Shown: positions 13,925 through 27,418 of the stretch, in pieces
How the letters are laid out: each line of letters begins with the position of its first letter
Numbering within the stretch: the stretch's first letter is position 1
Assembly (NCBI GenBank): GCA_963977445.1
Contig: CAXBPH010000031.1
Coordinates: 1-38,368 of the forward strand
Origin: an uncultured bacterium
Lineage (GTDB): Bacteria > Hydrogenedentota > Hydrogenedentia > Hydrogenedentales > JAEUWI01
Direction: 5' to 3'
Length of the DNA stretch: 38,368 bases
Notes under the pieces: generated by a model
The model's database searches: none
What the model saw: only the letters and a program-made list of their open reading frames with translations
What the model was told of the DNA's origin: nothing
Translations under genes and position numbers: made by a program

Positions 13925-14117
13925 CGTGCCGCGCGATCCCGAGGTACGAGGGTTCGTGCGCGGGTTGGGAGATACGAATAGGTCTCTACTTCAAGACCAA
14001 GGCCAAGCACAATGCTCGATTCCCATTTATCTCTTGAATACTTTCTACAACGACACAGACCCCGATGACGTCCCACAGTCTCTTCGCACGAACTGGAGTA
14101 CCAGATCGCGCGGCACG
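13925..14117. repeat. Inverted REP doublet (REPIN-like), GTGCC-tagged class
   Basis: Perfect 14-bp terminal inverted repeat CGTGCCGCGCGATC (13925-13938) / GATCGCGCGGCACG (14104-14117). Each end unit (13925-13960, 14085-14117) is itself an imperfect hairpin, CGCGCGATC...GTTCGTGCG. Confidence 0.75.
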
Positions 14118-14170
14118 TCCATGGATTGTGGATTTATCTGCAAAGATTTGCGTGACGACATGATTCGCAA
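14104..14170 (+). repeat. 67-bp dispersed repeat, copy 1 (inverted copy at 30402-30468)
   Basis: Hand alignment gives 59/67 identity with no gaps to the reverse complement of 30402-30468; the terminal 23 bp TTGCGTGACGACATGATTCGCAA are identical. Confidence 0.85.
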
Positions 14171-14227: not shown

Positions 14228-16279
14228 TCAGAGGTCGCCATCGTCCTCATCAGAGGTCGTAAGGACATACCGATCCACGCCGCCATCGTCCGATACGGTT
14301 TCTTCCCAGGCGTCCATCGCAGACTCGACGCCCTCAACCAGAACCCCATGCTGCTTCGCGAGTGCAACAAACTCACCATCGGTCCAGTCACCCCGCTGGA
14401 TTAACGCATAAAGTGCATCGCAATAGGGGTCTGCCACCCGTTCCGCAACCATGGGTGACGTTTCCGGCGCCGTGACCTCTCGGCCATACCAGATGCCCCG
14501 CTTACCCAAGGCAGCACCCCTAAGGGGCTTGACCCCTTGCATGGCCACCCCCAGGCGATAGGCAAACGCCTTGGTTTCCCGCATCAGTTGGGCAAGCCTA
14601 TCCCGATTAACCTGCTCTCCATCGGGAGACAACAGCGTAGAGAACAGCTCGTCGAGCCGGACAACCGAAATGCCCAGGGCCCGGTAAGCCCGCCGCAATG
14701 CCAGACCTTCGTCGTTCTGAATGGCGAAATTGGCCGCAGCAACGCCGACGAGAAACTTCCCGGCTTCGACACACTCCTCCTCCGTCAAAATTGCTTTCAC
14801 CCGCCGGGTGAGACTGGTAAGTTTGGGTGGAAACTTAATCAGCCGACGCCGCAACACACCAAGGCGATGTTTGTCGTCGTCATTGAAATGATAAAGTGAA
14901 TTTACGATCTCCGATACGTGCAGCACCTCCACATGGTCCACCGTACCGTCCACCTCGGCGATGGACGTGCCCAACGCCAACAGCAACACCCCCGCCAGAA
15001 AACAGGGCTCACTATCGGCGTGCCGTGCCGTAGCACGGGTCAGCACGACGCGCTCACGGGCCTTGAAAGGTCTTAGCAGATTCGCGGGACTGGGCAACAA
15101 TTCGTACCCGGCCGCCAAAGCCTTTTCCGTAACGTCTATGCTCTCCAACAGGGATACAGACTTCTTTCCCCAGGGAAGTCCCAGACACGTCGCCACTGCG
15201 GATACCGGCACGACCACCCGTCCTTTGGGGCTTGCATAGGTGTCAATCAGGCCCTGCCAGTCGCTCCCCCCTTCCTGTTCCGCTTCACATTCGCGCCAGA
15301 GGGAAATGAGCGGCTCGAACTGGCCATAGGCCCCCATGACGTCGGCCGATGTCACCGACCAAAGGGACCCAAAGTGTTTCCAGCTCTGCAACGAAGGATT
15401 GATGGGACGATACTTCCAGGTCTGTTGTTCTGCGGCAATCTCCAGCAGCAGCCCTTCACCAAATTTTTCTTCGTAGGCGGCGGTGAAGCGCCGGGCAAAG
15501 GCGTCGCCCTCGGTAGCATAACTTCCCTTGTGGGAGCAGCGAATATCCTGCCGCGCAATTTCGAAGGCCAGGGCCGCCGGCAGCGGCTTCCCTCGCTCGT
15601 AGAGCCACGTGGTGGCCACGGCCAGGGCGTCCCCATGCAAGGGTGCCGTCTGCTGCATGAAAAGCCGCTGAAACCAGGCGGGTTTGAGACGTTCAATGCC
15701 TTTGGTCGCGAAAAGGAAGGCCGCCAACCGTGAAACGCTGCTGAAGAAGGAGGGTGCATCTTCGTAGTGCTTCACCAGGCTCATCAACACCCGCAAGACA
15801 TCTTCCGGGTCCCCCTTATCGATGAGGGCATAACGCTCCAGACCATAAAAGTAGAGAAAGGCGTAGTTCATGTCGTCAAGCGGCAGCCTTCGCCCCGAAG
15901 CCAGCCAGGCGAGGTAATTTCCCCGCTGGGTTGGTGTCAGCGCCGAATAACTCGTCCAGTGCGCGACGGGCTGCCCCTCCTCCCAGGAAGGCTCACCAAT
16001 GGGCAGGCCCAGGTCGATGCAGGACGTTTCCGTGTCCGCCGCCGGGCCCTCTGAGGTGTAGAGCATAGGCCGTGGTATGGATTGGCCCCCATGACTGAAG
16101 GTGGCACCAAGCCCATGCCAGAGGAGCGCCGCACCAGCAGCGGGTTCCTGCCCTTCCCCTTCCACAACGGCCCAGGGGATGGTCCAGCGCTCGTCAACGT
16201 CGTTCATGGCGGGGCCCACATCGGGTATGCCGACCGTTTCGGCGGCGTCTTCCGTGGCCTTGTCGTCTGGATTGGTCAT
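14228..16279 (-). CDS. TerB-N / TerB / TerB-C domain protein
   Basis: TerB-N motif 'SYSALTPTQRGNYLAWLASGRR...YAFLYFYGLE'; TerB motifs 'AEVDGTVDHVE' and 'VAAANFAIQNDE...LRRAYRALG'; TerB-C-like 'W..GEFVALAKQHGVLVEG...AMDAW'. Confidence 0.8.
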   Translation of the reverse strand: MTNPDDKATEDAAETVGIPDVGPAMNDVDERWTIPWAVVEGEGQEPAAGAALLWHGLGATFSHGGQSIPRPMLYTSEGPAADTETSCIDLGLPIGEPSWEEGQPVAHWTSYSALTPTQRGNYLAWLASGRRLPLDDMNYAFLYFYGLERYALIDKGDPEDVLRVLMSLVKHYEDAPSFFSSVSRLAAFLFATKGIERLKPAWFQRLFMQQTAPLHGDALAVATTWLYERGKPLPAALAFEIARQDIRCSHKGSYATEGDAFARRFTAAYEEKFGEGLLLEIAAEQQTWKYRPINPSLQSWKHFGSLWSVTSADVMGAYGQFEPLISLWRECEAEQEGGSDWQGLIDTYASPKGRVVVPVSAVATCLGLPWGKKSVSLLESIDVTEKALAAGYELLPSPANLLRPFKARERVVLTRATARHADSEPCFLAGVLLLALGTSIAEVDGTVDHVEVLHVSEIVNSLYHFNDDDKHRLGVLRRRLIKFPPKLTSLTRRVKAILTEEECVEAGKFLVGVAAANFAIQNDEGLALRRAYRALGISVVRLDELFSTLLSPDGEQVNRDRLAQLMRETKAFAYRLGVAMQGVKPLRGAALGKRGIWYGREVTAPETSPMVAERVADPYCDALYALIQRGDWTDGEFVALAKQHGVLVEGVESAMDAWEETVSDDGGVDRYVLTTSDEDDGDL

Positions 16280-16334
16280 GGTCCTGTCAATTCAGGTTGT
16301 CCCATCACGGCAAGTGAAAAGACCACCCCATCGT

Positions 16335-17321
16335 TTATGGAGCGTCATCGACGCCCATGGTGATGACAATTTTTCCCTGGGCATGTTTCTCTTCCATATG
16401 TCGAATGGCATCGGCGACGTCGGCGAGGGGGTAGGTCTTGTCGATTACAGCTACGATCTCGCCACGGTCGATATGTCCAGCCACCAATGCCAAATCTTCT
16501 CCATTGGGGTTGACCAGCATGTTACCCATTTTTTTCGAGCCCGTCATGTTGATAAAAGGCGCGATAAGCATGGCCTGAAAGAACTGGGACGTGTCTCCGC
16601 CGCTCATCATATACCGGCCCGTGGGACTCAGGGCGCGCTTGTAGTCGAAAATGGACCGGTCGCCGTTGGCCGCGTGGAGCAGATCATACTGTTGACCGTT
16701 TCGCGTGAAATCTTCCTTGGTGTAGTCGATGACATGGTCCGCACCCAGAGCCGCAACCCGCTCGACATTTCGGGTACTGCACACCCCCGTCACTTCGGCG
16801 CCAAAAAGCTTGGCAATCTGAACGGCGAAAGAGCCCACGCCACCGGACGCGCCGTTTATGAGCACCTTATCCCCCGCTGCGATCTTACCGTGGTCGCGCA
16901 GCGCCTGGAGGGCGGTTACCGCCGCCGCAGGCACAGTTGCGGCCTCTTCGAAGGAAAGCTTTTCCGGTTTCATCGCCAGGACCTTTTCGGGTGCCACGGC
17001 ATACTCGGCAAAGGCACCAAACCCTACGTTAGAAATGTCACCAAACACCGCATCCCCCGGCTTGAAACGGGTTATCTTGTCCCCCACCGCTTCCACACGC
17101 CCGGCGATGTCCGAACCGAGGATATTCACCTTCGGTTTGAAGAGCCCAAACATGAGACGCACCAGCCAGGGGTCGGCGCGGAGCAGATGCCAGTCGCCCG
17201 CGTTGACAGAAGAAGCATGGACTTTTACCAGGACCTCGTTGGCCTTCGGCAAGGGCTTTTCCACGTCCTCATATCGGAGTACATCGGGGGACCCGTATTC
17301 TGTGTTTACAATCGCTTTCAT
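16335..17321 (-). CDS. NAD(P)-dependent oxidoreductase, MDR/quinone-reductase-like ('NAD(P)-dependent alcohol dehydrogenase')
   Basis: 'YGSPDVL', 'ILGSDIAGRVEAVG', 'GAFAEY', Rossmann motif 'INGASGGVGSFAVQIAK', 'GKIVI'; no catalytic Zn cysteines. Confidence 0.92.
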   Translation of the reverse strand: MKAIVNTEYGSPDVLRYEDVEKPLPKANEVLVKVHASSVNAGDWHLLRADPWLVRLMFGLFKPKVNILGSDIAGRVEAVGDKITRFKPGDAVFGDISNVGFGAFAEYAVAPEKVLAMKPEKLSFEEAATVPAAAVTALQALRDHGKIAAGDKVLINGASGGVGSFAVQIAKLFGAEVTGVCSTRNVERVAALGADHVIDYTKEDFTRNGQQYDLLHAANGDRSIFDYKRALSPTGRYMMSGGDTSQFFQAMLIAPFINMTGSKKMGNMLVNPNGEDLALVAGHIDRGEIVAVIDKTYPLADVADAIRHMEEKHAQGKIVITMGVDDAP

Positions 17322-17406
17322 GGAACTCTTTCATTGCTAGTGTGGGTGAAGATTGGAGTTTTAAAAAAGCTGAAGTACGTAACGCAGCTTTCCGCCGCAA
17401 CCAAAC

Positions 17407-17800
17407 GTCATTCCCGCGCAGGGGGCTGTTGATTTAAGGTGCAGAGTACGAGTAAAGCCTACCAACCTGTATTTAGAGCCCACAATGTCATTCCCGCGCA
17501 GGGGGCTGTTGATTTAATGTGCGGAGTACGAGTAAAGCCTACCAACCTGCATTCAGAGCCAACAACGTCATTCCCGCGCACGCGGGAATCCAGTAGGTAT
17601 GCTCGGTTTCTGTGTTCGCGTTACTGGATCTCCGCCTTCGCGGAGATGACGGCAACGTGCTTTCATTCCATGCGGTAGGCGGCGTTGAATAAACCAACAG
17701 CCCCGCAGGCGGAAATCCAGAGGGTATCATCGGTGTCTATGTCCGGGTTACTGGTTCCCCCCGTTTCCACCACGGCGGATCTACGACGCGAGGATGACGG
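17407..17800. repeat. Nested cluster of CGTC-type REP palindromes (GTCATTCCCGC-N4-GCGGGAATCCAG), with an 80-bp tandem duplication
   Basis: GTCATTCCCGCGCA at 17407, 17487 and 17567 (period 80; the two 80-mers are 74/80 identical). Intact inverted doublet at 17567-17650. Second doublet half at 17709-17800 with the same 30-bp spacer length (spacers 22/30 identical). Confidence 0.9.
17502..17704. mobile_element. 203-bp non-autonomous MITE inserted into a REP hairpin loop
   Basis: TIRs GGGGCTGTTGATTTA (17502-17516) and TAAACCAACAGCCCC (17690-17704), 14/15 match. GCAG on both flanks (17498-17501, 17705-17708). Removal restores GTCATTCCCGC-GCAG-GCGGAAATCCAG. Confidence 0.8.
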
Positions 17801-17856
17801 CCTTCTGTTTTTCTCAACGTCTTTACAGAGTCCATCGTAAAATCCCCAGTTCGTTC

Positions 17857-17884
17857 ACCGTCAACCGTCAATCGTCAACCGTCA
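17857..17884. repeat. Heptamer tandem repeat (ACCGTCA)x4 overlapping the ATPase stop codon
   Basis: accgtca accgtca atcgtca accgtca, read directly from the sequence. Confidence 0.8.
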
Positions 17885-20800
17885 ACTGCTTTCCCGTCCT
17901 GCAACTCATCCAGCAAGACCTGATAGCGCTCGAGATTCTGGTCCATGAGGGCCTTGAGGCGCTTCATCTCTTCCGTCTGCTCGCGGGTCTCTTTAAAGAT
18001 AGGTGCGAGCCATCCCTGCATCAGCTTGAACTGCTCGCTCATCACGCCAATCAGCGCGCGGGGCACCTTGGAAACCACCTCCACCGACGTGGTGTGGGGC
18101 GTGTCGTCACGGCTACCCATAGACGCAACGCCCGATCGCATGGCATCGCAAATGTGCTCTAGTCCATCGTTGATACTGCCCAACTGGAGCAATACCTGGG
18201 CCACGCCCTGGTCATCACCGAGGCCTTTCATCTTGAGATTCTTCGTAAAGGTCTTCTTGATACTGGCCCAACGTTCGGCCTCGGTCTCATCGAGACTGCC
18301 CGTAAGCTCCTTGAACTTCAGCATGTTGGACTCAGCACCGCTGGTCAGCGTCTGTGAGTCCCCCTCATAGTTACCGTGAATCAACGTCGTCAGCTCACCA
18401 TCATTCATAATATCCACCACCCGCTCCGCGATACGGTTCATATTACGATAGGAGCCCTGCAGCTTGAAGGAAGGTTCGGTCCGGTAGTCGTCTTGAATGC
18501 CCGCCGAACGGATATATTCCTTGTTTACTTCCAACACCACGTCACGCACGACCAGTAGTTTCTTCATGACGTTGACCATGCTGTTGATCTCATCGAGAGA
18601 ATAGTTCCCTTTGAGTTCGATGCCTTCACGGCTGTCCGTCTCGGCAGCACGAATAATGGCGTAGACATCGTCCTGACTCTTGGAAGCGAGTTGGTTCAGA
18701 ACAGAGTTCGATGTCAGGCAGTTTTCGAGATAACTCATCTCAAAGTCGTCCGCGCTGTCGCCGATAATTTCACCCAGGTTGTAGGTGTCGGCACGGTTGG
18801 CCAGCATGTCGGGAATCTGAAACTTCTCGCCACTTTCCGTGTAGGGGTTGCCCGCCATTACGACGGCAACTTTCTTGCCCCGCAAATCATAGGTACGGGT
18901 ACGCCCCTTATGGATGCCCTCAATCTTCCGCTGGGCATCGCACAACGATATGAATTTCTGCAAAAATTCCGGATTACAATGCTGAATATCGTCCACATAG
19001 AGCATCACGTTGTCGCCCATCTCCAGGGCGAGATTCAGCTTGGCCAACTCTTCACGGGCGGCCGCATTGGTCGCTTCCGAGGGATCCAGCGAGGTCACCT
19101 GATGGCCCAGGGCGGGACCATTGATCTTCATGAATATCAACCCGAGGCGATTGGCGATGTACTCCATCAAGGTGGTCTTACCATAGCCCGGAGGCGATAT
19201 GAGCAAGAGCATACCCATACGGTCCGTTCGCTTCTGATCCCCCGCCGCACCAATCTGCTTGGCCAGATTATCGCCAATGAGAGGCAGATACACGTTATCA
19301 ATGAGCTTATTCCGCACAAAGCTCGTGAGGACACGGGGCTTAAATTCATCCAGGCGTAAGGCCTCGGTCTCTTCTTCTACGATGGCCTTTTTACGGCTCA
19401 CATAGGTTTCATAACGCGGCACCGTCTCATTACGATAAGCCGTGAGTTTCGACATGAAGGTATTGAAGTTGAGCAGATAGCCCCCCCCCTCGACAAGGGA
19501 ATGGCTCCCCACAAGCCCCGACAACCGGGCAATGGACGAGGCATGGAGGACCCGTGTTATGTCGTGGTCTCCCGTCAACAACAGGCCCGCCACTTCGTCG
19601 ATGTAATCCCGCTCCACCGCGTCTTCACGACTGCGAACAAAGGCTCCGACCCAATCGCGACAAAGAAGAAAGGCACTGTTGGGATTCTCGCGAGTTTCCG
19701 CAAGGGACGTCGCGAATCGCTCCGCGAAATTGTGCTTCTGGAGATGCATATTGAATTGCTGAAAAATGGTGTCGGCATTTTCACTGATGACGCTGCCCCC
19801 GCCCTTCACAAGAATCTCAAAGAGATACCGGGCCGCCTCGTCAATCCACAAGGCGTCGAATACATCCGTCTCGGTCACGTAGGTACCAAGCAGCTGACGC
19901 AACTCCGCCGTGTAGTGCCGTTGGGCCTCCGCGTCGACGAAGAGTTCGCGAATGATGCCAAAGCCCTGCAGGGTGTTGGCGATACGTAGCTTCGCGATGT
20001 CATCGGCATACTGAAACCAGAACACCGTTGCCATGGCACGGGCCTTCGGGTGGAAGGCCAGCAGTCCAATAGAGGCTTCCATTTCGAGCAACGCCCGGAG
20101 GATATGCGCACCATCGGCATCGTGCACCCCTTTGACGTAGCCCTCGGAATAACGCGAGCCCATGAACTTCTGCACGTAGGCCTGCAAGTCTTCCTGGGAC
20201 AAGGCACGAAGCTCGCTCAATTCCATCCCACCCGGCTCGCGAACCGATTGGAGCAGTATATAAGCCAGGTACTCGGCGCGGTAGACGTCTCCGCTTTCCG
20301 AGACCACTTCCTGTGCCCAGAGATCACGGGTTGAGAGAAAGGGCTCGTCTTTTATGGCGTCAAAGTAGTTGGTGCCCGCCAGGTGAAAGTACATATCGTC
20401 ATCGCGAAATACGGTCGTGAGAGCAAGCTCAAAAGTATTCACGGTGAACTTGTGGGCACCGAAACGAATAATATTTTCGCCTTCTTCGAATAGTTCCTGA
20501 CGATCCTTAAGCTGGCGGGCTGCGTCTTCACGGATGGTCTTCAGCCGACTTTGGACATCGTCCATCTTCACGCTGTCGCCCAGCTCACCCATTTCCTGGA
20601 TGATACCACGGACCTTATCGATCATCAGGTCGGAGGCGAAATACCCATGAATTTCCTCGACCGTCTTAAACGTAGATACCCGACTCTTAATTCCATTCAG
20701 AATACGCTCCGCCGCCTGCATCAGGGCCGTCACACGTTTGTTCTGTTTCTCCTGAAGCTGAATCTTGACGGATTCAAAGGCGTTGTAGGCCTCCTCCCGC

Positions 20801-23037
20801 TTTTCCGTGAGTTGCATAACGAACTCATCGAATTCGGCGAAGCGCCCTTCCAATTCTTCAATCTGGACCATAACGCGGGTCAGATACTGCTCACATTTCG
20901 GAACCGTGTCGCACAGATCGATATAGTTGGCCACCGCCTGATTCAAAAGCTTAATCTGCGAGTTAAACTCGGCGATACCTTCCGATTTCCCCAATTCCCG
21001 GGTCTTGTTCTTCAATTGAGAGCGGGTCTTATTCAGGGTGGCAAAGATTTCGGAAATAGAATCAATAATGGTGGTGCGCTGGGTCGCGTCTTCAATCTTC
21101 AGATTACTGACCACGTCGATCAGCATCTCCAGGTCGGCCGATTGTTGATCCACCAATTCGGCCAATGCCCGTGCTTCCGCGACCTTGGCCAGACCATCAA
21201 TTTGCGCCGCGTGTTCCTCCACCGCAGTCGCATAAGGCGTGAGCGACTCGGGACGCAGCAGAAACTCCACGCATCGTTGTCCCAGTTTTTCCGCCTCGTC
21301 CGCCAGGGTGGTCTGGAGGGTTTCGACCGCCGCAAGATCCATATATTTGAGATCCCGCAACGCAATGACCTTGCCGCGAATGGTGCGGACCGCCGTCAGG
21401 GACTCCACAAAATCATGGATGTTGCCAAAAGGCTTGCTGGCGATGGTCTTGACGATCGTGTCCGCCTCGGCAGCGGCCGTGTTCAGTTGCTCTGTGGAAT
21501 TCCGCCGGGCATTGGAAACCTTATCAAACTCACTGATGGCCGACTGGGCCGCCTCTCGGATGACCTGAAGATCTTCCTTCAGGTTGAACGTCTCGTCGCT
21601 GCCAATCCAGTGGTACACGTCAAACATGACGCCAACTTTCTTGGCAATATCTCCGTAGAGATTCGCGTAACTGTCTTCTTTCGCAATGAGGTTGAGCACC
21701 TCATGGCAGTCCGCCATACCCCGAACGATTTCCTTGTTACCAATTTTGTAGAGCATCGAATCGGACTGGGCAGAAATCGGGAGATCGGCGCTGCGATAGG
21801 GCGTCTGCCAGATCTGGAGCGCATGATTCCGCTGCGGCTCGGGCGTCCCTTTGAAATAGACCAACTCACCATCTTTAAAGAGGGAATAGCCGTTGCACGG
21901 GATAGGCGTGTTCACCGTCTGGGTAATTACATTGTAGGAAAGGAGAACATAGTCGCCAAGATCACGACTATAGAAAACGAAGAGGTAATCCTCCCCGTTG
22001 GTCGAAGGAATGCGCTTCTCAAAGAGCATATCCTTGAAGCCACCACCAAAAGATTTCTGTTCACCCGTCTGCAACACATAGCCGTTGGCGTAAATCAGGC
22101 CATGCTCTTCGGGCAAAAAGACACAGGACTCCTGAATCGCATCGAGACGATAGACCTTCTGGTTTTTCTCGCAGTACACAAAATAGCGCCAGGCATTTTC
22201 CTGGTAGGGTTTAATCTTCAGGAGAATGAGGTTGCCCACGATGGCGTAGAAAAACTCGGCGTCATCCAGCGTCTGGTCGGCATTCTCCACGTCCTCGGCA
22301 TAAATACCAAGGCCCGAAGCCGTGTTGTTCTCTATCTTGATGGTCAGGTCGCCGCCCACCGTCTCCACGAAGAGCCGGTCTTCGATGGATACGTGGGGAT
22401 GCTTGCCATGGTACTGCATATCCCGGTGGGTGCGTTTCCACTCAAAATCATGCTGAGACGGAAAGCAGTAGTCGTGTTCACTACGATTGTCCAGATAGCT
22501 GAGGCTATTCTCACCGACCTGCCATTTGAAAACCTTAATGTCCCCTATCCCTTTCCCCACGCGGAACACCATAAACAGGTGTGGCCCGATAACGGAGAAC
22601 TTGGCGAAGACCGTATTCTTGTAGTACTTGAAGAGTTCCTGAAAATCCCGTTCAAAATTCTCATCGTTAATCAGGTCGAGGGGTTCCCGCACCAGGGTGT
22701 GGGCCTCTTCCATGCGATAGACGGAAAAGACGTCCTCCAGGGCAATTTGCGACTTGAGCCCGATGTGTACGTTATACCCGAAGATAAAGCGTTCGCCAAT
22801 GGGAACAATATCCCGGGCGATGCAGCTGTTGTCGGTGCTCAGGTGTTCCGTCGTAAGCAGCTTGGTCTCGATAGCGCCAAAGACATCTTTGCGCGCCCCA
22901 TTGAGTTGCTCCAGGCGGCCCTGCAGGGCGCGCCCCGCCTTGGCGAGGCGGTTACGTATGATTTCATAAGTACCCGCCTCGAGGCCCGGGGCCGTGGCTT
23001 CGACACCATCCGGTGTCGTTGCTTCCGGTTCAGCCAT
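17875..23037 (-). CDS. Large AAA+ ATPase, DUF3686-type (often auto-annotated 'DNA repair ATPase'): beta-rich N-terminus, long coiled coil, C-terminal AAA+ module
   Basis: 1720 aa; Walker A 'LLISPPGYGKTT', Walker B-like 'MLYVDDIQH', sensor-1 'MAGNPYT', Arg finger 'LANRAD'; N-terminal 'GTYEIIRNRL'; strong RBS AAGGAGG. Confidence 0.85.
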   Translation of the reverse strand: MAEPEATTPDGVEATAPGLEAGTYEIIRNRLAKAGRALQGRLEQLNGARKDVFGAIETKLLTTEHLSTDNSCIARDIVPIGERFIFGYNVHIGLKSQIALEDVFSVYRMEEAHTLVREPLDLINDENFERDFQELFKYYKNTVFAKFSVIGPHLFMVFRVGKGIGDIKVFKWQVGENSLSYLDNRSEHDYCFPSQHDFEWKRTHRDMQYHGKHPHVSIEDRLFVETVGGDLTIKIENNTASGLGIYAEDVENADQTLDDAEFFYAIVGNLILLKIKPYQENAWRYFVYCEKNQKVYRLDAIQESCVFLPEEHGLIYANGYVLQTGEQKSFGGGFKDMLFEKRIPSTNGEDYLFVFYSRDLGDYVLLSYNVITQTVNTPIPCNGYSLFKDGELVYFKGTPEPQRNHALQIWQTPYRSADLPISAQSDSMLYKIGNKEIVRGMADCHEVLNLIAKEDSYANLYGDIAKKVGVMFDVYHWIGSDETFNLKEDLQVIREAAQSAISEFDKVSNARRNSTEQLNTAAAEADTIVKTIASKPFGNIHDFVESLTAVRTIRGKVIALRDLKYMDLAAVETLQTTLADEAEKLGQRCVEFLLRPESLTPYATAVEEHAAQIDGLAKVAEARALAELVDQQSADLEMLIDVVSNLKIEDATQRTTIIDSISEIFATLNKTRSQLKNKTRELGKSEGIAEFNSQIKLLNQAVANYIDLCDTVPKCEQYLTRVMVQIEELEGRFAEFDEFVMQLTEKREEAYNAFESVKIQLQEKQNKRVTALMQAAERILNGIKSRVSTFKTVEEIHGYFASDLMIDKVRGIIQEMGELGDSVKMDDVQSRLKTIREDAARQLKDRQELFEEGENIIRFGAHKFTVNTFELALTTVFRDDDMYFHLAGTNYFDAIKDEPFLSTRDLWAQEVVSESGDVYRAEYLAYILLQSVREPGGMELSELRALSQEDLQAYVQKFMGSRYSEGYVKGVHDADGAHILRALLEMEASIGLLAFHPKARAMATVFWFQYADDIAKLRIANTLQGFGIIRELFVDAEAQRHYTAELRQLLGTYVTETDVFDALWIDEAARYLFEILVKGGGSVISENADTIFQQFNMHLQKHNFAERFATSLAETRENPNSAFLLCRDWVGAFVRSREDAVERDYIDEVAGLLLTGDHDITRVLHASSIARLSGLVGSHSLVEGGGYLLNFNTFMSKLTAYRNETVPRYETYVSRKKAIVEEETEALRLDEFKPRVLTSFVRNKLIDNVYLPLIGDNLAKQIGAAGDQKRTDRMGMLLLISPPGYGKTTLMEYIANRLGLIFMKINGPALGHQVTSLDPSEATNAAAREELAKLNLALEMGDNVMLYVDDIQHCNPEFLQKFISLCDAQRKIEGIHKGRTRTYDLRGKKVAVVMAGNPYTESGEKFQIPDMLANRADTYNLGEIIGDSADDFEMSYLENCLTSNSVLNQLASKSQDDVYAIIRAAETDSREGIELKGNYSLDEINSMVNVMKKLLVVRDVVLEVNKEYIRSAGIQDDYRTEPSFKLQGSYRNMNRIAERVVDIMNDGELTTLIHGNYEGDSQTLTSGAESNMLKFKELTGSLDETEAERWASIKKTFTKNLKMKGLGDDQGVAQVLLQLGSINDGLEHICDAMRSGVASMGSRDDTPHTTSVEVVSKVPRALIGVMSEQFKLMQGWLAPIFKETREQTEEMKRLKALMDQNLERYQVLLDELQDGKAVDG

Positions 23038-23097
23038 GTGCGATCCTCCTTGTTGGATTCATCACGTCGTCTGCCAATAGTTCCCGCAAAGTGCGGT

Positions 23098-25104
23098 TCA
23101 GCAGACTTGGCTGAGGGTTTTATCCGCAAATCCCAATTGCTGGGCCAGGCCCGCAAGAATCTGAAACTCATTCGCATCGCCCGCATCGTCGGCCATATTC
23201 TTCATCTTGCTAAGCAGGGCCGCAATGGACAGATTTTTTACGTCTTCACTACCGATAGCAAACTGGCTCGTAAAATGCTCCATCCGCGCCCGGAAGTACT
23301 CGGGGTCACCGTTGAAGAACGTATTCTTCACGTCCGTCAGGGCCTTGCTGTTGTCGACCCAGCGGTCCATCGCCTTACCCGACGTAATGGCCTGGGTGAT
23401 TTTATTGAAGAACTCCGTCTCCCCACCCACAATGTCGATCTTGGCCGTCTTGAGGGCCTGTCCGATAACCTCCGCCTGACGCGCTGCAATCTCACGCTGT
23501 GCGTCGATAGTGGCCAGGTCGATGGTCTTCTCTTTTTCCAGTTTGAGCTTGAATTCTTCGTGCTCCCGTCCGACCGCGTTGAAGAGCTTCATCGCCTCGG
23601 CCTTGTCCGTAATACCCTTGGCATCGGCCTCAAACTTAAGCTGCATGACATTCGCTTCGGCCGTACCCTGCTTCTCGACCGCCACCGCGTGGGCTTCCAT
23701 GCCCTTCGCTTCGGCAACCGCTTTGCTCTCGATGACCGTAGCCTCGGCGAGCCCCGTTGCAGCCTGTTCGGCCGTCACACCTTCTGCCAGCATCTTCTTG
23801 CCGGCTGCCTCGCGCTGACTGGCATCCCGCTTGGCTTCGGCAGAAATAACCGCCTCTTCGGCACTGAATCGCGCCGCGTCCCGCCGGGCTTCGGCCGCCT
23901 TGATCTCTTTCACCAGGGATTCCTGGGCATCTTTCTCGGCGGCCGTAATCGCCACCTGCTTCGCACGGTCCGCCGTAGCAAATTCCTGGGTGTCCTTGAT
24001 GCGTTCCTGCTCTTCCACCACCGCACGCTCTACGATGACGCGTTCGCGAATCACATCTTGAATCGCCTTCTTCTCCACCTCGATGGCTTTCTCTTTCTCA
24101 ATCTCCGCCAGACTCACAACACGCTCGCGCTCGGTGGCCTCCAGCATGCGGTCTTTCTCTACGCGTTCCTTCTCCACCTGGTCCGTACGCTCTTTGTTGC
24201 GCATGGCCACGATGACCTGTCGGTCTTTGTTCTCGTTGGCAATGGCCACCTCTTCTTCGGTGGTAATGCGCGCACGCTCCGACTTGAGACGTTCTTCTTC
24301 TTTGATTTTCGCCGCTTCGGCCTGTTCGCGGGATTGGACCGATTCAATTTCCCGAATCTGCTTCGCTTCCGCTTCCGCCTGCTGCTTTTCTAGTTCCAGG
24401 ATAGCTTCCCGCGCTTCCACGTCCTGTTTCTTGATGGTCTTCTCTTTGTCACGCGTAATGCTATTGGCCAGAATCTGCTGCTGGGCCGTCAGGTCGGTAA
24501 TCTTCTTGATACCTTCCGAGTCCAGGATATTGTGGGGATCCAGCTGATTCATGGGCGTCTGTTCAAGATAATCGATGGCCGCATCGTCGAGGATGTAGCC
24601 ATTCAAATCACGACCAATGATTTTTAGAATCTCTTCTTTGAATTCTTCCCGCGACGTGTAGAGGGCCACAAACTCAAACTTCTTACCCACACTCTTCAGC
24701 GCTTCTGAAAATTTCGCCTCAAAGAGCTCTTCCAGCTTCTCGCGCTCGGAGGCACGGGCCGCACCAATAGACTGAGCCACTTTCAACACGTCTTCTTCGT
24801 TGTTGTTTACCCGAACGAAGAAGGCCACCTTTATATCTGCCCGAACATTGTCCTGGCAGACTAGCCCCTGGGGACCATGGCGAAAAATCTCAATCCGCCG
24901 CACCGAGATATCCATGACCTCGGCCTGACGGACCAAGGGCAACAGAATCGCTTTGGAGAAGTGAACCGTCGGATTCTTACCACCGGTAATAATCAGCGCC
25001 GTGCCCTGCTCCACCTTGCGCCAACAACGAATCACCATAATCATGACCGCAAAAGCCACAACAATCAGCACGAACACTATGGTGCTCAGCAAACCATACA
25101 ACAT
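23098..25104 (-). CDS. Flotillin-family SPFH/Band-7 membrane protein (YqiK-like)
   Basis: N-terminal TM helix; SPFH core 'LVCQDNVRADIKVAFFVRVN...FSEALKSVG'; long E/A-rich coiled coil with AEA repeats; RBS AGGAGG. Confidence 0.9.
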   Translation of the reverse strand: MLYGLLSTIVFVLIVVAFAVMIMVIRCWRKVEQGTALIITGGKNPTVHFSKAILLPLVRQAEVMDISVRRIEIFRHGPQGLVCQDNVRADIKVAFFVRVNNNEEDVLKVAQSIGAARASEREKLEELFEAKFSEALKSVGKKFEFVALYTSREEFKEEILKIIGRDLNGYILDDAAIDYLEQTPMNQLDPHNILDSEGIKKITDLTAQQQILANSITRDKEKTIKKQDVEAREAILELEKQQAEAEAKQIREIESVQSREQAEAAKIKEEERLKSERARITTEEEVAIANENKDRQVIVAMRNKERTDQVEKERVEKDRMLEATERERVVSLAEIEKEKAIEVEKKAIQDVIRERVIVERAVVEEQERIKDTQEFATADRAKQVAITAAEKDAQESLVKEIKAAEARRDAARFSAEEAVISAEAKRDASQREAAGKKMLAEGVTAEQAATGLAEATVIESKAVAEAKGMEAHAVAVEKQGTAEANVMQLKFEADAKGITDKAEAMKLFNAVGREHEEFKLKLEKEKTIDLATIDAQREIAARQAEVIGQALKTAKIDIVGGETEFFNKITQAITSGKAMDRWVDNSKALTDVKNTFFNGDPEYFRARMEHFTSQFAIGSEDVKNLSIAALLSKMKNMADDAGDANEFQILAGLAQQLGFADKTLSQVC

Positions 25105-25197
25105 AAGACCATCCTCCTGTAGAGTACTAAAGTCACTATCATCTGGACGGGAAATACCCCTGCATTTCCGCCCTCCCGCAACATCAAATTATGTATG

Positions 25198-25875
25198 CTA
25201 TACCTCTAAAGTGCCTGCCTTATTCGATGAACCAGAAAAGGGCGCAACGATGTAGACACCATCATCATCTTTCGCGATTACCACGGCCTCTTCCCCTTTT
25301 GTGAGGGCAACACCGTCTCGCGTTTTAACGTTGAGTAGTAGCGGCGACCCCTGCAAGGGCACCTCCGCCTGACCGTGTTTTTCGGTGACTTCGAGAGAAC
25401 TCACGACACACAGCTGACCGATAACATGGACAACATCACTACTTTCATCGAAGGCTTTCTTGAGCAAGGGCACGAAGGGCATGAGGACAAGCTTTGTCGC
25501 CACAAAGCCACCGACAACAATCGGTATCACCAGAAATCCGGCAATCAGAACACTCGTGTTGCTCAAATAGTGGTTTGAAAGAATGGAGATGGCCCACATC
25601 GCGGTGCTGAGCACCGAGGCGACCACGGTCACGGGCACCTCGGCCGCGTAGACAAATTTCATCAGGGCCCCGAGAATACTCCCCCCTCCCTCAGCGCCAC
25701 CATCTACATCCAGGTCACCCCCGTCACCGTCCAAATCACCATCAAAATCAAAATCGAGCAAATCAGAACCGAAGACCCCCACCAGATATAAGATCCAGTA
25801 GAACAGGGATATACCAAAAAGGATGGTATAAGGCAGGTTTACTGGTCGTATGGACTCATGAAACAGCTCAATCAT
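25198..25875 (-). CDS. YqiJ/DUF1449-like (NfeD-type) membrane protein with C-terminal OB fold
   Basis: TM helix, Asp/Gly-rich linker (DFDFDGDLDGDG), further TM helices, then 'VIGQLCVV...GQAEV...LLLNVK...KGEEAVVI'. Start moved to the ATG at 25875 after an AGAGGG RBS. Lies directly upstream of a flotillin gene. Confidence 0.8.
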   Translation of the reverse strand: MIELFHESIRPVNLPYTILFGISLFYWILYLVGVFGSDLLDFDFDGDLDGDGGDLDVDGGAEGGGSILGALMKFVYAAEVPVTVVASVLSTAMWAISILSNHYLSNTSVLIAGFLVIPIVVGGFVATKLVLMPFVPLLKKAFDESSDVVHVIGQLCVVSSLEVTEKHGQAEVPLQGSPLLLNVKTRDGVALTKGEEAVVIAKDDDGVYIVAPFSGSSNKAGTLEV

Positions 25876-26211
25876 AATCAGCCCTCTGCAGCACACGTCG
25901 CGCGTCTGGATATAGTTGCCAGATACGAACGTTTGCCATCACGTTTCGCGGAGATACCCTCGCACTTCCCAATCGAGTGAAATCCCGACGCCCAAGAAAG
26001 TACCATCTTTACATGAACCCCTACAGGCGTTCAATGAACAAGCCGGGTCAAACTCCACCGTCCTACTTCGTGTTCGGTGTGCTCTATATACTCCTGAGAA
26101 GGCGGGTTTATTCGTTTTTCGATGGTTACGTTGCTGTCAGGTGCCTTGGGGCCATATCAGGTCTTGTTATAATCCGATTGGCAAGGCGGGTCCACTGGGC
26201 ACCTACACAAA

Positions 26212-26431
26212 GCACCAACAGGGGGTTGGGCATACCCACCACGGCGCGTCTTCGACCTGCCCGACACAAAGCCCACCAAGAGCCCCAACAAGCACGGCGT
26301 GCCATACTACACAAACCCAAAATAACCCAAAATTTGATCTGATGACGCTCGCGTGCTCAGGCCAGCGTCACGCGTGCCCCGGCGCCCACCATGCCCTATG
26401 TGTCGGGCAGGTATGCCCAACCCCCTGTTGG
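26212..26431. repeat. Inverted REP doublet downstream of the RAYT gene (left copy interrupted by a 21-bp insert)
   Basis: CCAACAGGGGGTTGGGCATA[21 bp]CCTGCCCGACACA at 26212-26279 (+) and an uninterrupted reverse complement at 26399-26431; hairpin GGGCA-TACC-TGCCC. Confidence 0.85.
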
Positions 26432-26444
26432 AACACTTTTTAAA

Positions 26445-27125
26445 TCACCGGTAGATCTCGGGAAGAAAATCTGGTGCTTCAAAGTAATAAAATTCGCCGG
26501 AATTAATATTCGCTTCCGCAGGATTGTTCTTGATGTATGAAAAACATCTTACCAGGTTATTCATACTACGCATGAGCCGATCCCAGTTCTCCTGTTGCCA
26601 CAGGGCACCCGAACGGCCCAGGTATTTGTTGATCTGGGCCGCCGAATATCCCTTCCAAGAGCCGAGAACATCCTCTACTTTATGAGTCCCACGCAATTGA
26701 AAAAGTGTATGGACATGATTCGGCATGACCACGAAGTTGCCAATGTCATAGCGCACATGGTCAAAATGGAGTATGGCCTCGGCAACCCGCTGCGAACATT
26801 CTACATCTCGTAAATGGCAAGAGCCATACCCTTGATCCAGCCATCGTTCGATCCGTTGTGGGAATAACCGTCGATAATCCAGGCGTGTGGCACTATCCCA
26901 TGGATACGGGTGGTTCTCGAGCCAGACCGACTTTTCGTCCCGCCAGCGCCGAAGTTTATCCTGGGGCAGGGAGTCCGTAAGGCGCCAAGTGACAAAATAA
27001 AATGCACCGTCGAGTTGCCAATGTGGCAGGTGGCGCTCATGAATCTCAACCGGGGAATCGGAACGGAGAAATGGATCGTGATAGGCTGCATTCTGATCGT
27101 TGTCCGAGTTGGCCTCGTGTCGCAT
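26445..27125 (-). mobile_element. REP-associated tyrosine transposase (RAYT, IS200-like Y1 HUH endonuclease)
   Basis: 'RHLPHW', 'YFVTWRLTDSLP', HUH motif 'FVVMPNHVH', 'WKGYSA', 'WQQENWDRLMR', catalytic Tyr in 'YIKNNP'. ATG at 27125 after GGAGG. Flanked on both sides by the same palindromic repeat. Confidence 0.88.
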
Positions 27126-27183
27126 ATCCAAGCCCTCCAAGTTGATTAAAATACTAGCGATTCCAGCCCGCTGCTACAAGCGT

Positions 27184-27230
27184 GCACCAACAGGGGCTTG
27201 GGCATACCTGCCCGAGACAAAGCCCACCAA
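27184..27230 (+). repeat. REP copy upstream of the RAYT gene
   Basis: GCACCAACAGGGGCTTGGGCATACCTGCCCGAGACAAAGCCCACCAA is near-identical to 26212-26279 once the 21-bp insert is removed (47 vs 68 bp). Confidence 0.85.
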
Positions 27231-27418
27231 AGACTCCCAATGCAACAAGCGCCATGGAATAGTCAACCCAAACCTTCTTCCCACTACCCGCAATCAATTC
27301 CCCCACCCCCGTCCCCAATTGCCACGCCACTTCCCTTTTTACTGCATATAGCGTTACTATGTCTCTCCAAAGACCACCACCATTTAAACTGCATTCTTCG
27401 CAACGAGGAAACCGAATC

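Follow-up and report, generated by a model that had tools for sequence, protein, structure and literature searches.

The subject of this analysis is a DNA module of 21–22 nucleotides (nt), also called the block here, two copies of which lie in a 38,368-nt stretch from an uncultured bacterium of the Hydrogenedentota (contig CAXBPH010000031.1 of assembly GCA_963977445.1; the whole stretch is referred to as the window). The block belongs to a genus-specific family of short sequences and interrupts repetitive extragenic palindromic (REP) sequences of at least seven families in an all-or-nothing manner. Our findings suggest, with about an even chance of being right, that these modules are minimal, non-autonomous mobile DNA that makes precise, duplication-free insertions almost only inside other palindromic repeats of the REP or REPIN (REP doublet forming hairpin) type. 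The features of the window that bear on this proposal are given below; filled hairpins contain the block, empty ones lack it, and a caret marks its position.

17766..17786, plus strand: module copy 1, TCCACCACGGCGGATCTACGA (21 nt), inside the loop of a family B hairpin
17748..17802, plus strand: host of copy 1, the second hairpin of family B (GTTACTGG..CCCCCCGTT^CGCGAGGATGACGG), filled form
17620..17653, plus strand: sister family B hairpin, empty form, 4-nt loop CTTC
26235..26255, plus strand: module copy 2, CCCACCACGGCGCGTCTTCGA (21 nt), in the loop of a family A REP, inside GGGGGTTGGGCATA^CCTGCCCGACACAAAG
26216..26273, plus strand: host of copy 2, a family A REP (CAACAGGGGGTTGGGCA-loop-TGCCCGACACAAAG), filled form
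26399..26431, minus strand: empty family A REP, 4-nt loop TACC, adjoining the 3' end of a gene for a REP-associated tyrosine transposase (RAYT)
26445..27140, minus strand: the RAYT-like Y1 transposase gene (231 aa; Pfam Y1_Tnp PF01797), between inverted family A REPs
27184..27230, plus strand: empty family A REP, 4-nt loop TACC, upstream of the RAYT gene and inverted relative to 26399-26431

The two 20-mers by which the initial annotation had recognized these copies are identical at 17 of 20 positions, and no such match arose in 100 dinucleotide-preserving shuffles of the window. Its observation that sister hairpins lack the block also stands, both for the two family A REPs beside the RAYT gene and for the sister of the copy 1 host, all of which are empty forms with a 4-nt loop. 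Outside the window, TCCACCACGGCGGATCTACGA recurs identically and at the same loop position in four more family B copies (C23, C40, C385 and C5; C numbers denote contigs), and C360 carries a variant with one mismatch. The 21-mer of copy 2 recurs at 21 of 21 positions in GACCA-stem REPs on C187 and C371, where only 33 of 50 flanking bases are identical; these hosts and the window host belong to different stem subfamilies with different RAYTs.

The module family has the consensus YCCNCC-N2-3-GGCGSR-TCTWCGA over 21–22 nt, in which a conserved TCTWCGA tail follows an imperfect CCNCC/GGCGG inverted repeat, and both window copies belong to it. Within the genome of the window (G000; 7.1 Mb, 464 contigs, 56.4% G+C), the degenerate pattern proposed in the initial annotation gave 31 matches with up to two mismatches against 5 in the backward control, and the exact pattern CCNCC-N2-3-GGCGSRTCTWYGA gave 70 against 0. 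The exact pattern also occurs 5–50 times in each of the eight other genomes of the same genus, with 0–1 matches in the controls; in 32 genomes from other genera within the family and order, it has a single match in four and none in 28. The initial annotation had staked its claim on the existence of further copies, and there are many, in the genome as well as in all eight relatives. A nhmmer profile detected 92 copies at 12 bits or more in G000 and none in the reversed genome. A looser regular expression for the core returned 165 matches against 16 in the control and revealed a second tail class, GTCC[AG]AGA, beside GTCT[TA]CGA. Uniting two profiles yielded 142 copies in G000, with 0–1 in reversed-sequence controls. 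When window positions 17300-27400 were searched against Rfam 15 (E up to 1), no match was found at either copy; the sole match in that region was the unrelated sR44, which stayed below threshold at 19 bits against a gathering score of 45.

Block-like sequence was also seen within protein-coding genes. At C173:440-500 of G000 it lies in a YD/RHS-repeat gene with the frame kept (..YTYPPAADLRHMGRRCAVAHNRLSQV..), as if about 17 codons had been inserted in a YD repeat, and at loci L163 and L164 of the relative G004, YD/RHS paralogs contain two or three 22-nt copies, the reading frame differing on either side.

The block is present in its hosts either completely or not at all. Among 100 hairpins found by a structural search for family A, 82 have a 4-nt loop, four a 24-nt loop and 11 a 25-nt loop, the remaining three being unrelated hairpins with odd stems; filled and empty forms are both present in each of five stem subfamilies. 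The 36 strict matches to family B comprise 31 with a 4-nt loop and five with a 25-nt loop; relaxing the search brought in a sixth filled copy, on C5, and a single divergent loop of 27 nt. Similarly, the distance between the outer arms in the C/D/E superfamily peaks at 16 nt (56 cases) and 17 nt (58), and then at 38 (15), 39 (31) and 41 nt (18), and the insert of family G measures 0 nt in 61 cases and 22 nt in 25, with single cases of 21, 26 and 8 nt. The claim that a discrete, very small unit is inserted in hairpin repeats unrelated to one another, and that these have filled as well as empty paralogs, is therefore borne out, and for far more unrelated hosts than the two originally reported.

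Alignments lead to the same picture. For family B we aligned the two-hairpin unit of about 95 nt from five filled copies and from 12 randomly sampled of the 31 empty ones, and the window host at 17748..17802 is homologous to the 12 empty copies on both sides of a clean 21-nt gap. Composites of about 200 nt, each made of two inverted C-type REPs, likewise remain homologous to either side of a clean 22-nt gap. Of the 15 rows in the same register, 11 have a filled and 4 an empty right REP, a count that leaves out C31, C38, C77 and C315 (other register or orientation), and C194 is filled in the left REP instead. A composite of two inverted C-type REPs also occurs in the window at 13926-14130, upstream of a TerB-domain gene, where both REPs are without the block. 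With an occupancy of about 30% in family G REPs and about 15% in family A and B REPs, the block offers a ready marker for repeat dynamics, and for annotation it explains the existence of short-loop and long-loop REP forms in this lineage.

Other repeats enclose at least 133 of the 142 copies, and 128 could be assigned to ten site classes in at least seven REP-type families, as follows.

Family C, site 1, CGCACGAA^CCGG..CCGGATCGCGCGGCAC: 33 copies
Family E, same site as family C site 1, outer stem CACCCGA/TCGGGTG: 16 copies
Family D, site 2, ..GGATCG^CGTGGCAC: 16 copies
Family G, 3' arm, GCAGGCGGGCCG^CCTGCGCTCCCAAT: 23 copies
Family A, loop: 13 copies
Family A, 3' arm, TGC^CTGA: 12 copies
Family A, outside the 5' arm, reversed: 4 copies
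Family B, loop: 6 copies
Family F: 3 copies
Family H: 2 copies

Among the 14 unassigned copies, five are further family A or G variants, about six look like chance or coding matches, and three (C68, C126 and C8) lie in unique sequence between short complementary arms. A separate test found at least one flank repeated three or more times in the genome for 110 of 120 profile matches. These hosts are not one family in disguise: each stem subfamily of family A (GGGCA, GACCA, GGACA, AGGCA, CAGACA and others) borders a RAYT of its own, and these RAYTs are all of one sequence type; the RAYTs bordered by families C and E are of a second type, and family G flanks a third. Individual host groups also offer more than one site, with three in family A (loop, 3' arm and outside the 5' arm) and two in the C/D/E superfamily. 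In G004, which has 50 matches, the block sits mostly in G-like REPs with the canonical tail among the 30 loci inspected, together with hosts unseen in G000 (L118, L123, L136/L140 and L139).

Two side observations concern these host families. About 20 elements of G000, none of them in the window, share the outer frame of family E (CACCCGA-ACG...CGATC-GGGTGGCAC) and enclose 86-90 nt instead of the 13-nt inner hairpin; the enclosed sequence is far more variable but nearly constant in length, with at least two sub-groups (ACGCTTTC.. and ACGTGC..), and examples are found at C62:8848/11042/11381, C132:2466/2692, C79:8539/8772 and C21:30429/38863. They may be small RNA genes or nested inserts of another type, larger than the block. 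As for family H, both filled copies are on C327 and C81, and a repeat cluster with an empty hairpin (GTCCGCTTCGCGGAC) occurs at C168:12815-13100 of G000, downstream of a classical 150-aa IS200-type TnpA.

Insertion leaves no target duplication. The family B junction CGCGTT|TCC..CGA|CGCG is unambiguous when compared with the empty form CGCGTTCGCG, with no base duplicated, and so is the family A junction at C74 (GGGCATT|TCC..CGA|CCTGCCC). Elsewhere, the junctions can be placed only to within 1–3 nt because the block shares letters with its flank; the duplicated ACC that the initial annotation had read in the window is such a case and a coincidence of one copy. Of 118 copies collected with a strict regular expression, 115 have C as the next base, corresponding to 50 of 53 distinct contexts, in a genome whose C content is 28%. 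This C is derived from the host, the empty loops being GTTC and TTCC, not GTT and TTC. The base before the block is G in 50 copies, A in 47, T in 21 and C in none, and the two bases at -2/-1 are variable (AA 44, CG 33, TT 18, TG 14).

Structural preferences at the junctions were assessed with perfect stems and with minimum free energy (MFE) folds. Perfect stems of at least 5 bp within 18 nt surround 28 of 87 copies, compared with 15% of random positions and 20% of swapped flanks, a test with too little power, since bulged or two-level stems prevail among the hosts. In the MFE folds, 83 of 86 junctions are enclosed, which barely discriminates them from random positions (83%); the only clear difference is a junction unpaired on the left and paired on the right, seen in 38 of 86 copies, which are not independent, against 203 of 1500. 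The initial idea that hairpin loops are targeted by structure rather than by sequence is right in part. Apical loops are indeed occupied, but they are one site class among ten, other sites lie in the 3' stem arm, at the junction of a two-level hairpin and once outside the stem, and there is a sequence rule in the C that nearly always follows the block and never precedes it.

Single REPs can be occupied more than once. C108 is filled at sites 1 and 2, C133 and C8 carry the block in both loop and 3' arm, and a family A REP at C395 has one block in the loop and an inverted one outside the 5' arm. Three exact head-to-tail copies with a 21-nt period fill the loop of a family A REP in the relative G001, and its inverted sister 170 nt away has one. 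At another G001 locus (L162; G001:C523:11128-11176), two inverted block copies stand 7 nt apart, and the same arrangement surrounds the family A 5' arm at C395 in G000; the block can also form a REPIN-like doublet of its own. Among 15 inverted family G pairs, seven are empty/empty, seven mixed and one filled/filled, about as expected for independent sites at 30% occupancy. These counts led us to reject the idea, prompted by a passage on heterodimers in the available text of PMC3733652, that the block is retained because it renders REPIN doublets asymmetric and so protects them from hairpin nucleases.

Host use also differs between species and subtypes. Filled family B copies span two host stem subtypes, and five of the six carry the identical 21-mer. 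The C157-type RAYT in G000 has the block in both flanking family G REPs; the family G REPs flanking its orthologues in G001, G004, G005 and G008 are empty, and next to those in G002, G003 and G006 no block or clear REP was seen. Taken together, the multiple sites, the multiple occupancy, the independent pairs, the identical 21-mers in diverged hosts and the differing hosts between species mean that many separate gains are needed.

The simplest account of these patterns is a discrete module that has entered many hairpin repeats, repeatedly and without target duplication, as single-strand transposition by an HUH (Y1) enzyme does; a Y1 enzyme is the probable mover. One of the Y1 (HUH, RAYT/IS200-type) transposases of the genome would cut the module and join it, as single-stranded DNA, into exposed parts of REP hairpins; the copies are nearly always found directly 5' of a C, and most often in a loop or where a helix arm begins. 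As a second route, it would multiply passively whenever a host REP or REPIN is copied. Continued movement, the Y1 enzyme, the single-strand mechanism and the choice of target are what we infer from these patterns.

Candidate enzymes are abundant, with 18 Y1_Tnp matches in G000, 16 of them above the Pfam cut-off and several flanked by host REP families. The one in the window matches PF01797 with an E-value of 2.2e-7 and 31.5 bits (curated cut-off 23), its translation contains HVH and YIxxNP motifs, which we take to be catalytic, and a close relative is present in a metagenome-assembled genome of Candidatus Hydrogenedentales; with its flanking inverted family A REPs, it forms a REP-RAYT arrangement. 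As to the transposase gene flanked by the motif that was to be looked for at the outset, only the C157 RAYT among the 18 genes inspected has the block on both sides, and there it lies inside family G REPs and not as bare copies.

A more far-reaching proposal, which we put forward tentatively and rate somewhat below an even chance, is that the block represents a distinct class of ultra-small (21–22 nt) "hyperparasitic" mobile DNA: a minimal transposase substrate that uses the REP and REPIN hairpins of several unrelated RAYT systems as landing pads, choosing a position 5' of C in an exposed hairpin and not a long sequence. If the block moves alone, it would be among the smallest transposable units described and would show the minimum DNA that an HUH transposase needs. 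It would also mean that REP and REPIN populations, which have long persisted in genomes as parasites or symbionts, are in turn parasitized.

Several results weigh against the idea that the modules are mobile DNA. No filled/empty pair was seen at an orthologous site for the two window loci in the eight same-genus genomes; the coding flanks of these loci are 65–83% identical in relatives and the orthologous intergenic sites have not retained the REP clusters, which makes an orthologous comparison impossible. A metagenome scan with the filled-REP pattern of family C returned three contigs (L165-L167) that are 99–100% identical to G000 contigs along their whole length, in the same filled state and without polymorphism; the filled/empty pairs anticipated by the initial annotation exist among paralogous REPs but not in these contigs. 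One public sequencing run contained 15% of the sampled words, as contigs of relatives; it covers neither window copy usably, lists no insertions or deletions and is uninformative on gain or loss of the block. Inspection of the flanks of the 18 Y1 genes revealed none with bare block copies and no transposase tied to the module. Moreover, the filled copies of family C have about 190 nt of homologous flanking sequence in common, and those of family G likewise have common flanks; most copies in these two families lie in larger repeats, so much of the copy number reflects hitch-hiking, and independent insertions must be far fewer than 142. As background, IS200/IS605 elements insert 3' of a fixed tetra- or pentanucleotide, and the left flanks of the 118 copies contain no conserved target akin to the IS200/IS605 tetranucleotide. 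The orientation of the block relative to replication, examined in the single-contig relative G008 (21 matches against 5 in the control), was without statistical power.

The hairpin of the block itself adds to these reservations. Its outer pair covaries among the 165 core matches (T-A 55 and C-G 84 against 15 unpaired combinations), but this could be one inherited double change that separates two linked lineages. Position 2 of the six-position inverted repeat has C opposite C in 132 of 165 copies, and position 4 is paired in just 41. Seven of eight folded variants are thermodynamically weak, the sole stable one being TCCGCC..GGCGGA at -4.3 kcal/mol, a value met by 4% of shuffles. The mini-hairpin described at first is among the weak ones, both window variants folding at -0.1 and -0.5 kcal/mol, no better than shuffles.

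An explanation without present-day self-movement is that a few old insertions or recombinations placed the block in REP masters, which were then multiplied by the copying of host REPs and REPINs; selection may also keep the block as a functional piece, such as a protein-binding or RNA-processing site, comparable to the extra motifs carried by the bacterial interspersed mosaic elements (BIMEs) of E. coli. We consider this unlikely, although it is the strongest of the alternatives. The shared flanks of filled family C and G copies, which spread as parts of larger units, speak for it, as do the 3' half GGCGSRTCTWCGA, conserved across species with 17–35% divergence in neighboring coding DNA, and the failure to find a dedicated enzyme on inspection of the 18 Y1 genes and their flanks. 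It accounts poorly for the ten site classes, of which a single host family contains three, for double and triple occupancy, for family G pairs occupied independently, for identical 21-mers in diverged hosts, and for hosts that vary between species, the RAYT-flanking family G REPs being filled in G000 only; in addition, no Rfam family matches at either window copy. Exchange between repeats without a free intermediate, by template switching or by RAYT-mediated strand exchange between paired REPs, would yield mosaics like BIMEs or the Neisseria mosaic elements, and it seems quite improbable to us. All hosts are substrates or neighbors of Y1 transposases, and mosaic arrangements as well as alternative short and long loops in REP families are described in the available text of Di Nocera et al. 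2013 (PMC3733652). However, different hosts have no homology next to the block by which such exchange could be guided, the boundaries are base-exact in unrelated hosts, and no chimeras were seen whose left and right halves come from different hosts.

The suggestion in the initial annotation that the 21 nt are the scar of an excised larger element, such as an insertion sequence or an intron targeting REP loops, is scarcely credible on our data. Insertion sequences that target REPs are reportedly known (IS1397, and work attributed to Tobes and Pareja in 2006), but no larger element bounded by the two halves was found: matches to the right half only number about 7 of 87, with 6 in the control, and those to the left half only about 24 of 57, near the control value of 15. 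Nor did any family A or B left half precede a distant right half with an element between them. A split-host search gave 143 unclosed family A-like left halves, many of which are probably chance matches to a loose pattern, and just two loci had a matching right arm further on; these proved to be arm-site block copies with the arm 282 and 666 nt away and no inserted element, and the same search uncovered new arm-site block copies. Three exact tandem copies are also unexpected of a footprint.

Other features of the window lie near the two copies. Directly after the family B cluster, at the 3' end of a large minus-strand gene, five imperfect 7-nt repeats (CAACCGT / CAATCGT) occupy 17855-17892. The gene group at 14228-25896 includes a TerB_N+TerB protein (683 aa) and a 1720-aa protein with DUF3686 ("ATPase involved in DNA repair"), DUF7902 and AAA domains, as well as open reading frames of 443, 668 and 232 aa with no Pfam match; this group may be a defense or repair island.

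Turning to known systems, the block differs from miniature inverted-repeat transposable elements, an identity we rejected: its ends, TCC.. and ..CGA, are not inverted repeats, and the family B and C74 family A junctions have no target-site duplication. Non-autonomous elements derived from IS200/IS605 have two subterminal hairpins, one at the left and one at the right end. This identity was also rejected, the block having at most one imperfect palindrome, a variable 5' flank and the C at +1 as its only fixed rule. The insertion sequences said to target REPs, such as IS1397 and those attributed to Tobes and Pareja (2006), resemble it in that they are mobile DNA of another kind for which REP hairpins are the target, but they carry genes and measure about 1 kb or more, whereas the block is 21–22 nt of non-coding DNA.

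The small dispersed repeats (SDRs) of the Nostocaceae are reportedly 21-27 nt long and dispersed, with evidence of mobility, nesting and tandem copies, according to work attributed to Elhai and colleagues (2008, Genome Res 18:1484). Papers citing them describe SDRs as elements of about 20 nt thought to be mobile, with the HIP1 palindrome as the preferred short insertion site of SDR5 (PMC5861425, PMC2884548, PMC3116915), and one citing paper, in the text available, reports that SDR-like repeats were not found outside the Nostocaceae. As far as these secondary accounts go, the block and the SDRs are alike in size, nesting and tandem copies; they differ in phylum and sequence, and the hosts of the block are REP and REPIN elements with transposases of their own.

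The closest comparison is with REP/REPIN-RAYT systems, as portrayed in the accessible parts of Bertels and Rainey 2011 (PMC3116915) and PMC3733652. Like these repeats, the block is short, GC-rich, imperfectly palindromic, high-copy, extragenic and lineage-specific, occurs in a genome with many REP-flanked Y1 genes, and has neither terminal inverted repeats nor target duplications; it shares with REPs and REPINs high copy number (142), extragenic position, lineage restriction and vertical retention. REPs are short stem-loops, mostly with stems of 6–9 bp, and one end carries an unpaired GTAG or CGTC tag (Di Nocera et al. 2013, PMC3733652), and the E. coli RAYT is reported there to bind single-stranded REP DNA and to cut at the REP tag. 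The reverse complement of the block reads tag, spacer and palindrome (TC-GTAG-A-TCCGCC..), as in GTAG-tagged REPs; written for both tail letters it is TC-G(T/A)AG-A-palindrome, the layout of a tagged REP. Unlike REPs, the block measures only 21–22 nt, and its stem of 5-6 bp has one or two mismatches in most copies. A GTAG tag exists only in TCTACGA variants (TACGA tail, 14 of 165); the commonest tail, TTCGA (49 of 165), gives GAAG, which is not among the degenerate tag forms given in the accessible part of PMC3733652, and others give TTGG or TCGG. Since the tag occurs in a minority of copies, we describe the block as working like a minimal REP and do not class it as one. A further difference is that no RAYT lies between bare block copies and that the block is nearly always inside other REPs, not free in intergenic DNA.

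Elements of this general kind, namely REPs inside palindromes, short- and long-loop REP forms and mobile elements of about 20 nt in the Nostocaceae, are already in print; a single block of such size common to many REP families with different RAYTs was not found in open-access literature text. Di Nocera et al. 2013 (PMC3733652) describe REPs within palindromes for A. variabilis GTAG-15, T. roseum GTAG-23 and H. neapolitanus CGTC-1, and alternative short and long loops in the GTAG-3 and GTAG-14 families. The block shares with them, as far as described there, the nesting of one palindrome in another and the coexistence of short- and long-loop forms in one REP family. It is smaller than the REPs reported in that text, and whereas each of those REP families has one kind of target palindrome, the block occupies ten site classes in at least seven unrelated families.

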